Shown here: piece by piece, positions 8,501 to 11,500 of the stretch
Layout of the letters: each line of letters begins with the position of its first letter
Position numbering within the stretch: position 1 is the first letter of the stretch
IMG/VR virus record: IMGVR_UViG_2627853701_000001
Source of the DNA: a virus
Taxonomy: Duplodnaviria; Heunggongvirae; Uroviricota; Caudoviricetes
DNA length: 22,394 bases
Strand: one strand, 5' to 3'
Made by a program: the position numbers

Positions 8501-11500
8501 GCTTATCAGAGCGTGGAAACGTCAATCACTGGCTGCTTAATGGCGGTGGCTGGTTCTTTAATCTCGATTACGACAAAGAAATTCTGGCTAAAGCTCTTGC
8601 CCATAAAGCAGATGAACTTCCGTTAATCATCGAACTGGTGAGTAAAGGAAAAAAATATGTCATCTGCCACGCCGATTATCCTTGTGATAAATACGAGTTT
8701 GGAAAGCCAGTTGATCATCAGCAGGTAATCTGGAACCGCGAACGAATCAGCAACTCACAAGACGGGATCGTGAAAGAAATCAAAGGCGCGGACACGTTCA
8801 TCTTTGGTCATACGCCAGCAGTGAAACCACTCAAATTTGCCAACCAGATGTATATCGATACTGGCGCAGTGTTCTGCGGAAACCTCACATTGATTCAGGT
8901 ACAGGGAGAAGGCGCATGAGACTCGAAAGCGTAGCTAAATTTCATTCGCCAAAAAGCCCGATGATGAGCGACTCACCACGGGCCACGGCTTCTGACTCTC
9001 TTTCCGGTACTGATGTGATGGCTGCTATGGGGATGGCGCAATCACAAGCCGGATTCGGAATGGCTGTATTCTGTGGTAAGCACGAACTCAGCCAGAACGA
9101 CAAACAAAAGGCTATCAACTATCTGATGCAATTTGCACACAAGGTATCGGGGAAATACCGTGGCGTGGCAAAGCTTGAAGGAAATACTAAGGCAAAGGTA
9201 CTGCAAGTGCTCGCAACATTCGCTTATGCGGATTATTGCCGTAGTGCCGCTACGCCGGGCGCAAGATGCAGAGATTGCCACGGTACAGGCCGTGCGGTTG
9301 ATATAGCCAAAACAGAGCAGTGGGGGATAGTTGCTGAGAAAGAGTGCGGAAGATGTAAAGGCGTCGGTTATTCAAGAATGCCAGCAAGCGCCGCATATCG
9401 CGCTGTGACGATGCTAATCCCAAACCTTACCCAACCCACCTGGTCACGCACTGTTAAGCCGCTGTATGACGCTCTGGTTGTGCAATGCCACAAGGAAGAG
9501 TCAATCGCAGACAACATTTTGAATGCGATCACACGTTAGCGCCATGATTGCCACGGATGGCAACATATTAACGGCATAATATTGACTTTTTGAATAACTT
9601 TGGGGAAACTTGACACCAATAATGGGCGTTTTTTACATGTCATTGATGAGTCTCAATAACCTGCCGCCGAGTAGTTTTTATGCTCTGAATTGTATTTGTG
9701 TAGTAAACATGCTGACTGCAATGTAATAGAGTTTTTTTAGCCTGTAACCTCTTGACGGCATTGAATTGCTTTTGTTATGAGTTGTAAGCCAATGTTATCA
9801 TCTTGTATTGGGGTGGTTATGAAGGATGGTGCGCTGCTCAGGAGTTCTTCACTTTTTATTGCCTACATGGGATGCCTTGGATGGGGGAGTGCTTATTTCT
9901 ATGGATGGGGTACTTCTTTTTACTACGGCTTCCCATGGTGGATTGTAGGTGCAGGTGTTGATGATGTTGCCAGAAGTTTATTTTTTGCAGTTATCGTCAT
10001 TGCTATATTTCTTATCGGTTGGGGTATTGGTGTTGTATTCTTTTTCGCAGTGAAAAGAAAACATTCTATGCAAGAGCTAAATGTATTTCGCCTTTATTTT
10101 GCTGTGGAATTATTGTTTGTGCCGGCAATTATTGAGTTTTCTATATTGAGACAGAAGATTCAGGTACCTCTTTTGCTACTGTCAGCAGCGATTGCGCTGG
10201 CGGTCACAATTTCGATAAGATCTTATGGGCGATTTTTATCGGTATCATGCTTCTATGATAAGCCATTTATAAAAAAACATTTTTTTGAGATTGTGATGAT
10301 TGCTTTTGTGGCATATTTCTGGCTTTTTTCATTTCTGACAGGATATTACAAACCGCAGTTTAAGAAAGAATATGAAATGATTAATTATAATGATGGTTGG
10401 TATTATGTTCTTGCTCGTTATGATAATTGTCTGGTTTTGTCTACTTCTTTCAATGCAGGTAGTAAAAGGTTTGTGATTTATCAATCAGCACAAGATAAGA
10501 ATCTTCAGGTTGATATTGTAAGGACCAGAATTTAATTGGCTGCATAAATAATATTTTAAGTTGCAAGTTGGCTATTCGTAGGAATAGAACCTTAGGCATG
10601 CTGAATGCGTTTTCTGAACATTGTTTTATAAACTGTGTCTGCTTGCTGTTGTGATCCTGCTTTTAGTGATGGTGATGATGGATTTCACCAGCAGGATAAT
10701 GTTGGTACTGACTGATGGCGCTCTGGTCTGCGGCATTGTGGTATTGCTGTGGCCGGTGATAAAAAGAAACAGCCTGCATAATGCTTGATTTTTTTGTTTA
10801 CTGTTTATTAAAAATACTACTGCATGGTGAATCCCCCTGTGCGGAGGGGCAATCAGCAACCAGGTATATGTGATAATCGCGGATTCAGGTGCTGATACTG
10901 AATTCACCGGGAGGCACCCGGCACCATGCAAGAAAAAGAATGTGCATGCAAACATGCCCCTCTCCGGAGGGGCATTTTTTATGGGTAAAAAATGCCCGAA
11001 TGGGTTCGGGCAATAGCATGAGATACTGATATTGTTGTGTTGTTATCGTGTGGATTTTAACCAGGGTTTATCAGGCTGCGCAACTGCGTGGCCTTTTTTC
11101 ATTTCTTGGGCTGTAGTCCCCGTGTGTCATTCAGGCTTCCGGACTACAGCCCACTCCATATCTGATTTAATACACTATCCCGGCCGGGAGGAATAATGAC
11201 ATTTAAACATTATGATGTTGTCAGGGCGGCGTCGCCGTCAGACCTTGCGGAAAAGCTGACACACAAACTGAAAGAGGGCTGGCAGCCGTTTGGTAGTCCG
11301 GTGGCCATAACCCCTTATACCCTGATGCAGGTGATTACAGCAGAAGGTGATGTGGTGGTCAGTGGTGCAACTGAGCCGGATTGGTACTACGTCATCGTAC
11401 TGGCCGGGCAGTCCAATGCCATGGCTTACGGTGAAGGGCTTCCGCTGCCGGATTCATACGATGCTCCGGATCCGCGCATTAAACAGCTGGCGCGCCGCAG

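Follow-up and report, generated by a model that had tools for sequence, protein, structure and literature searches.

A TfpB-family membrane-protein cassette in the late-promoter cargo slot of an Escherichia coli O157:H7 prophage remnant, behind a promoter-proximal terminator that appears disabled

PR', the late promoter, shows constitutive activity in phage lambda and is predicted to do so in Shiga toxin (Stx) phages, and its transcripts normally stop at the terminator tR' to give the lambda 6S RNA or StxS (Sy et al. 2020, PMC7547250). The region downstream of the Q-antiterminated PR' has also been described as a moron site, with convergent small RNA (sRNA) genes, in Sp5, Sp15, Sp17 and others (Tree et al. 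2014). Here we examined this slot in a stretch of 22,394 nucleotides (nt) from IMG/VR record IMGVR_UViG_2627853701_000001 (Caudoviricetes), referred to throughout as the window, which is an ssrA-linked lambdoid prophage remnant of E. coli O157:H7. Between its lambda-type Q/PR' region and a nanS-p-type esterase gene, the window carries tfpB, encoding a TfpB-family inner-membrane protein, and a gene for a DUF3927/TciB-like micro-protein. The slot itself is known, as are the sRNA pair and the esterase, and both the reference genome of phage 434 and RefSeq already annotate the cassette as hypothetical or putative membrane protein. We hold with moderate confidence that these two genes form a lysogenic-conversion (moron) cassette that PR', lacking a functional terminator, would express in the dormant state, and, with low confidence, that TfpB has a role in the cell envelope. 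The features on which this reading draws are the following.

8916-9539, + strand: lambda-type antiterminator Q gene, 207 amino acids (Pfam PF03589 Antiterm, E 4e-58; DNA alignment with lambda Q)
9582-9623, + strand: late promoter PR' with Q-binding spacer (aligned with lambda PR')
9658-9679, + strand: disabled remnant of a 434/82-type PR'-proximal terminator, AACCTGCCGCCGAGTAG + T5 (homologous to the phage 434 terminator)
9752-9801, + strand: promoter-like region travelling with tfpB (scan match with extended -10)
9819-10535, + strand: tfpB-family inner-membrane protein gene, 238 amino acids (homolog lengths and alignment; Pfam PF27470; PHROG 1521)
10621-10788, + strand: DUF3927/TciB-like micro-protein gene, 55 amino acids, two hydrophobic helices (Pfam PF13064, E 1.4e-13; RefSeq WP_000499458.1)
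10954-10975 (stem, then U-run), + strand: first intrinsic terminator after PR', at the end of an STnc100-like RNA (-18.7 kcal/mol)
11073-11094, + strand: second intrinsic terminator, before the esterase gene (-15.2 kcal/mol)

Upstream of the cassette the window has a late unit of the lambda type, sharing with the lambda PR'-tR' unit the Q protein family, the -35, the Q-binding spacer and the +1 position. The Q gene follows lambda Q nearly base for base, with scattered substitutions only, and the match runs on through the -35 (TTGACT, 9582-9587), the 17-nt spacer, which in lambda contains the Q-binding element, and the -10 (GAAACT, 9605-9610); a -10-like AATAAT lies at 9618-9623. By our own count, 8 of the 12 hexamer positions agree with the consensus. 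The DNA alignment bears out the lambda likeness of Q and PR' claimed in an earlier reading of this DNA from sequence alone (the original prediction), and moves its end point from about 9630 to about 9617, the expected +1, where homology to lambda stops. The turn to AT-rich DNA noted in the same reading was also found: GC content falls from about 0.50 to 0.30-0.42 across 9500-10700, between flanks at about 0.50-0.57.

Downstream of +1 the two systems part. In lambda, transcripts terminate at +194 and yield a non-coding RNA, whereas the first terminator in the window lies about 1.34 kb downstream of the PR' +1, past two coding genes. A tR' would be expected roughly 200-260 nt downstream of PR', and none was found there in the window. 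Neither a terminator scan nor a separate scan for hairpins with U-tracts returned a compact intrinsic terminator in 9617-10950, and folding of the leader was no more stable than that of shuffled sequence (z +0.49), which agrees with the earlier claim that no hairpin with a U-run separates PR' from the membrane-protein open reading frame (ORF). Two T-runs, T7 at 9733-9739 and T5 at 9675-9679, were considered as parts of a hidden leader terminator and rejected, having no adjacent stable hairpin. A conserved 5' stem (9625-9628/9665-9668), in which GGCG/CGCC becomes GGUG/CACC at loci L052 and L063, was not convincing either, with one compensatory pair, covariation of about zero and broken inner pairs. 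Rho-dependent termination was considered as well, but with 30 C to 45 G over its 202 nt the leader is poor in C and unlike a rut site.

Phage 434 (OL657226) is among the closest known counterparts of the cassette. Both genes occur in it, as CPT_434_68 ('putative membrane protein') and CPT_434_69 ('TciB'), with a DNA identity of 97.5%, and it also has a membrane protein identical in sequence to that of the window (0 non-synonymous differences), the same downstream esterase gene and the same promoter-like block upstream of the ORF. However, phage 434 places these genes behind a Q82-type antiterminator and promoter with an intact terminator, where the window has lambda-type Q/PR' and a disabled one, and it gave no STnc100 or AgvB matches. 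Homology between the two begins at about 9657, and at the homologous place phage 434 has AAACCCGCTGCCGAGTGGG + T8, which folds at -12.9 to -13.3 kcal/mol (z -2.8). The window form, AACCUGCCGCCGAGUAG + U5, gave no terminator hairpin on folding.

We compared this junction across loci from viral contigs and other sources, comprising 34 434-type and 43 lambda-Q loci. The hairpin was intact at the 434-type junction in 34 loci, and the disabled form, CCUGCCGCCGAGUAG + U5, was present in all 43 of the 43 lambda-Q loci examined, including the divergent lineage L052 and L063 and phage 2B8. Of 5426 complete E. coli genomes, 618 have the 434-type junction and 572 the lambda-type, and O157:H7 strains carry both. 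Their second copy, at about 0.9 Mb (locus L110, NZ_AP018488.1 891375-900615, tfpB at 4719-5462 of the locus), encodes a protein, WP_001302581.1, identical to that of the window, and shares with phage 434 the intact terminator AAACCCGCUGCCGAGUGGG + U8 and a similar layout. It reads NinG, phosphatase, truncated lambda-type Q, lpxR (- strand), ylcG, Q82-type Q, tfpB, DUF3927 gene and lysis genes; the lpxR-ylcG-Q82 block has replaced most of the lambda-type Q, leaving a 72-nt N-terminal Q fragment. We found no earlier description of two promoter-proximal designs of one cassette, with intact and disabled terminator, in one O157 genome.

The junction of the window recurs unchanged in phage 2B8, a deposited lambda-like phage. 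There, PR' is followed by a single compact + strand terminator, placed immediately ahead of the esterase gene and downstream of both membrane-protein genes. Because of this, the cassette would, by sequence, lie inside a Q-independent PR' unit. Both phage 2B8 and phage 434 have a similar GGCUGCGC-stem terminator directly upstream of their own esterase genes.

These data suggest a mechanism. By sequence, the lambda-Q version has no functional form of the terminator at which PR' transcripts normally end within about 200 nt, and RNA polymerase starting from PR' at about 9617 would then proceed without Q for about 1.35 kb, across both membrane-protein genes of the cassette, which sits in the standard lambdoid cargo slot. 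Ending at 10954-10975 or at 11073-11094, this Q-independent transcript would contain tfpB, the DUF3927 gene and the STnc100-like RNA, and only onward reading into nanS-p and the lysis genes would require Q. Since no terminator was found before the genes and the first one lies beyond both, Q-independent transcription of the cassette from PR' is plausible, and we infer that PR' fires and the cassette is made in the dormant state.

A second source of expression is suggested by the promoter-like region that moves with tfpB, which contains TTGACG (9752-9757) and TTGTTA-18-TGtTATCAT (9772-9801). This block is kept in locus L087 despite unrelated upstream DNA, and TTGACG...TTTGTTATG is kept in a 59%-identical allele from enterotoxigenic E. 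coli (ETEC). Because of this conservation, and because the Salmonella homolog described below has a mapped promoter of its own, the cassette is probably not dependent on PR' alone, and the block probably adds PR'-independent tfpB expression. Overlapping the promoter-like element we also observed a cII-box-like TTGTTATGAGTTGT (9772-9785) that fits the loose pattern ttgyN6ttgy, and the annotators of phage 434 marked a cII site at the homologous place. If this cII box is real, the cassette would be switched on during the establishment of lysogeny.

The far side of the cassette is formed by an sRNA pair and the esterase gene, which delimit the cargo slot.

10796-10986, + strand: STnc100-family sRNA (Rfam RF02076, 144.7 bits against a gathering threshold of 47)
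10987-11048, - strand: AgvB anti-GcvB sRNA (Rfam RF02702, 96.5 bits against a gathering threshold of 56; consensus matched at every position)
11196-13049, + strand: nanS-p-type sialate O-acetylesterase gene, forming the right-hand edge of the cargo slot (Pfam DUF1737 + SASA + DUF6645)

The STnc100 and AgvB genes are convergent, and AgvB is an experimentally studied anti-GcvB sRNA. This pair (10796-11048) and the terminators at 10954-10975 and 11073-11094 had been overlooked in the original prediction; its placement of nanS-p after the cassette is confirmed by the domain content of the ORF at 11196-13049, which is that of nanS-p/yjhS. The esterase stands where yjhS stands in BP-4795 and the SASA esterase in phage 434. 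The STnc100-like RNA begins 8 nt past the DUF3927 stop codon, and processing of the 3' end of the cassette mRNA could therefore be its source.

The Stx phages BP-4795, Sp5 and Sp15 likewise have AT-rich cargo between Q/PR' and an STnc100/AgvB-type pair with nanS-p/yjhS. In BP-4795, an Stx1 phage, the order is Q, stx1AB, STnc100/AgvB homology, yjhS, S and R, and the block after stx1AB is homologous to 10820-11195 of the window, so that the cassette does occupy the stxAB position as had been proposed. They differ in retaining, upstream of their cargo, a tR' that gives the short StxS RNA (Sy 2020), whereas the window has no terminator before the cargo, and in that their cargo is a toxin rather than membrane proteins. 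In its distribution and composition the cassette is like a moron in the sense of Juhala and Hendrix, again as first read: it is absent in lambda, replaced by stx1AB in BP-4795 and present in 434 and 2B8, and its base composition departs from that of its flanks. As for signals of its own, it has the promoter-like TTGTTA-18-TGtTATCAT and TTGACG block, and the first terminator, at 10954-10975, is part of the STnc100-like RNA. No tRNA genes were found in the cargo slot, unlike in some Stx2 phages.

Turning to the proteins, the membrane-protein ORF called earlier with a start at either 9777 or 9819 is a real gene, and its start is best placed at the Met at 9819: the 25 homologs aligned (39-94% identity; 236-248 amino acids, nearly all 236-238) all align from there, and the 9777 start was dropped. 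RefSeq and the phage 434 annotators start the gene at 9792. A precomputed domain annotation gives the PF27470 TfpB label to all 104 homologs, the exact window protein (P0001) included; our Pfam and NCBIfam scans of a 252-amino-acid version of the ORF returned nothing useful, the Pfam copy scanned being one without the PF27470 model. The shared TfpB architecture, with an aromatic and glycine-rich N-terminal motif, membrane helices and a C-terminal beta domain in about 238 amino acids, was recovered by alignments, structural model and hydropathy. An AlphaFold model built with distant homologs in the alignment (predicted local distance difference test, pLDDT, 85.1; predicted template modelling score, pTM, 0.78) has helices at residues 6-36, 47-79, 84-111, 116-137 and 155-181; residues 187-232 form a domain of five strands. 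A first model from close homologs only was poor (pLDDT 60.6), and the Foldseek search of the PDB with that model was meaningless. Hydropathy gives four strongly hydrophobic segments and a weaker, aromatic/glycine-rich first one, and the charge distribution points to an N-terminus inside and a C-terminal domain outside, though this topology is not secure. No fold relative was found among solved or viral predicted structures.

The TfpB family is small, with 72 clusters at 50% identity among 1.84 billion representatives, and mostly confined to Enterobacteriaceae, with distant members such as that of Haemophilus ducreyi. The window allele is under purifying selection: against close alleles the ratio of non-synonymous to synonymous substitution rates (dN/dS) is 0.05-0.15 and there are no stop codons, with alleles up to 0.3 synonymous substitutions per site apart. 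The original prediction had named frameshifting in near-identical prophages as grounds for abandoning it, and part of this was observed, in that truncated forms exist; even so, the gene is kept at >=99% identity in 679 of 692 genomes. A literature search found no functional paper on the TfpB protein or family. A tfpB ORF may also exist in the pilin inversion region of Moraxella, a possible origin of the Pfam name.

The possible micro-ORF with two transmembrane helices at 10621-10788 is confirmed by its DUF3927 profile match (51 bits against a cut-off of 25; PHROG 1470 'TciB-like', E 2.7e-19), and the gene is longer than the version first given, which began MVMM. The profile covers the 55-amino-acid, TTG-start ORF from residue 7. 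The 'colicin/cell-division' wording in the name of PHROG 1470 is a mere label, and 'TciB' we take to be a name inherited from phage P1 annotation that carries no functional weight. DUF3927 genes were absent beside the tfpB homologs of Salmonella and H. ducreyi and none was called in the ETEC loci; the Yersinia contigs are too short to be informative. DUF3927 is therefore no obligate partner of tfpB, and since no DUF3927 gene adjoins tfpB outside E. coli/434-type prophages wherever this could be checked, the two genes are probably independent cargo.

Clues to function come from the company that tfpB keeps. In prophages it directly follows at least 4 types of Q: the Yersinia PF06530 Q, the E. 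coli PF06323 Q, the E. coli DUF1133-type Q, where lpxR and pmrD accompany it, and the Q82-type Q of phage 434. Outside prophages it lies beside lpxR in Citrobacter rodentium, between rpoH and mqo in H. ducreyi, and beside an sseJ-like gene in Salmonella (L004 5001-5717). On ETEC contigs (L097-L099, 4001-4714), the 59%-identical TfpB is divergent from Enterotoxin_a/b (LT, eltAB) and about 3 kb from STb in an arrangement flanked by insertion sequences (IS), and a Klebsiella homolog (L100) lies near STb, dsbA and an AraC regulator. The adjacency to lpxR is repeated (L107/L108 4001-6504; L003 3863-5717; L001 310-1269), once with pmrD and in differing orientations; it may reflect a functional link to lipid A remodelling or mere co-travel as cargo. 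Next to icd, a distant member, P0145 (L094 2176-5741), is found in a variable island where its neighbours are an AAA_23/AAA_21 ATPase gene and a small uncharacterised gene; this could be a defence island.

The Salmonella homolog is STM1630, a gene of 717 bp for which a published deletion primer encodes the N-terminal motif of the homolog. Like the window protein it is a TfpB-family member of 238 amino acids (46% identity), encoded by an AT-rich, horizontally acquired gene beside virulence genes. It differs in its chromosomal location, where neither phage genes nor a DUF3927 partner accompany it, and in having its own promoter active under Salmonella pathogenicity island 2 (SPI-2) conditions. 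STM1630 is bound by H-NS and expressed from its own promoter in SPI-2-inducing medium and inside macrophages, its signature-tagged mutants were reported to be attenuated in calves and chickens, and promoter-inactivating single-nucleotide polymorphisms were found in all ST313 strains tested (PMC6785131 Text S1). These observations lead us to favour, at low confidence, a role of TfpB at the cell envelope in host colonisation over one in phage exclusion. The option of a host-interaction factor, one of three offered in the original prediction, thereby gains indirect support through STM1630 and the repeated linkage to virulence cargo.

Several points weigh against the reading of a PR'-driven colonisation cassette. 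The -10 of PR', GAAACT, is weaker than the TAAATT of lambda, and PR' was not among the sites returned by a simple promoter scan of the window. The leader of about 200 nt is untranslated and AT-rich, so that Rho action or H-NS silencing is conceivable. Because the 434-type copies have the cassette behind an intact terminator, PR' read-through is not needed for cassette function, and given the promoter-like region moving with the gene, PR' may not be its main driver. Further, Q may be made at a low level in this prophage, since the immunity region is lost, which blurs the distinction between 'lysogen' and 'Q-dependent' expression. On the side of function, the role of TfpB is guessed from a 46%-identical homolog and gene neighbours only, truncated tfpB alleles exist (PHROG fragment families; clusters of 156-191 amino acids), and deletion of STM1630 in strain 4/74 raised intramacrophage replication (PMC6785131 Text S1).

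The other function raised in the original prediction is superinfection exclusion or abortive infection, in which TfpB, with or without the DUF3927 protein, would sit in the inner membrane of the lysogen and block DNA entry or trigger abortive infection. TfpB is indeed a polytopic membrane protein of a prophage moron predicted to be expressed in the dormant state. Known exclusion proteins such as HK97 gp15, P22 SieA and T4 Imm are likewise small phage or prophage inner-membrane proteins without detectable homologs. Their size and architecture are unlike those of TfpB, and we set them apart without a one-by-one comparison. The distant homolog beside an AAA_21-type ATPase in the variable island next to icd would also fit exclusion. 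However, PADLOC-DB gave no match at E up to 1 for TfpB or the DUF3927 protein, the fold search found no relative among viral or solved structures, in Salmonella, C. rodentium and H. ducreyi a single gene of the family is fixed in the chromosome outside any prophage, and its place next to toxin genes on ETEC contigs is more in keeping with a host-side role. We found no support for an anti-phage function in these searches and consider it unlikely.

A different view of expression would make the cassette a true late gene set, expressed mainly with Q in lytic growth and serving, for instance, to tune membrane state or lysis timing before the holin acts. It would account for tfpB being the first gene after Q/PR' behind several Q types, for its place upstream of the holin and lysis genes, and for the intact terminator before the 434-type copies, where PR'-driven expression would need Q. 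Yet lambda and Stx phages have no tfpB, the chromosomal orthologs have a regulated promoter of their own and no phage genes, and in the window IS elements interrupt the lysis cassette, yet tfpB is whole and does not differ from the copy carried by other strains; we judge this explanation improbable. Least probable of all, in our estimate, is that the lost terminator is harmless decay for which the downstream terminators suffice, and that the cassette is a neutral hitch-hiker, silent AT-rich DNA with no present role in O157. The degraded state of the prophage (IS30, IS66 and IS3-family elements, truncated lysozyme), the binding of H-NS to AT-rich TfpB-family genes in Salmonella and the existence of truncated alleles are what one would expect from it. 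The purifying selection on tfpB, the same disabled-terminator form kept in divergent lambda-Q lineages and phage 2B8, and the two intact tfpB copies kept per O157 genome all argue otherwise.

As to the prophage as a whole, 9540-11195 of the window (1.66 kb) is 100% identical to many E. coli O157:H7 chromosomes, EDL933 included, in which the counterpart is a degraded lambdoid prophage adjoining ssrA.

21335-21697: tmRNA (transfer-messenger RNA) gene of the window

Besides IS30, IS66 and IS3-family elements and a lysozyme gene that is truncated, the EDL933 prophage carries espW and espM2, both effector genes. EcOnc01b, one of 2 AgvB sRNA genes, was assigned to prophage Sp17 (Tree et al. 2014), and since the AgvB match of the window fits the Rfam consensus at every position, the window is most likely an Sp17-type remnant. 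By the EDL933 annotation, a truncated IS30, together with an upstream block holding two tyrosine recombinase genes, takes the place of the early/immunity region at about 6000-8260 of the window, and an HNH endonuclease gene overlaps ninG directly upstream of the phosphatase and Q genes. We also observed a single ALIL (IS3-family frameshift) pseudoknot in the window, where 16159-16275 and about 14100-17700 are concerned. The EDL933 record CP008957 has two IS1203 copies in the same prophage; the strain or assembly behind the window therefore has one IS copy fewer.

Taken at its widest, the preferred reading of a moron cassette expressed from PR' in the dormant state would mean that the PR' leader has grown from a short non-coding RNA (6S, StxS) into a 1.35-kb lysogen-expressed operon with two membrane proteins and a 3'-released Hfq-type STnc100-like sRNA. 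In that case TfpB would be an unrecognised envelope or colonisation factor, with a fold unlike solved ones, common to the prophages of enterohaemorrhagic E. coli, ETEC toxin loci and the Salmonella sseJ locus. We regard this extended version as doubtful. The O157:H7 copies of tfpB behind intact and disabled terminators nevertheless offer a natural experiment on late-promoter read-through into the cargo of dormant prophages. The TfpB family is small, conserved and recurrent beside virulence cargo, namely in the Stx slot and next to the LT/STb genes, lpxR/pmrD and Salmonella sseJ. Should TfpB do nothing measurable, the cassette would be an ordinary hypothetical-protein moron; should it be a colonisation or envelope factor, it would represent a widespread and overlooked prophage-borne trait of enteric pathogens.

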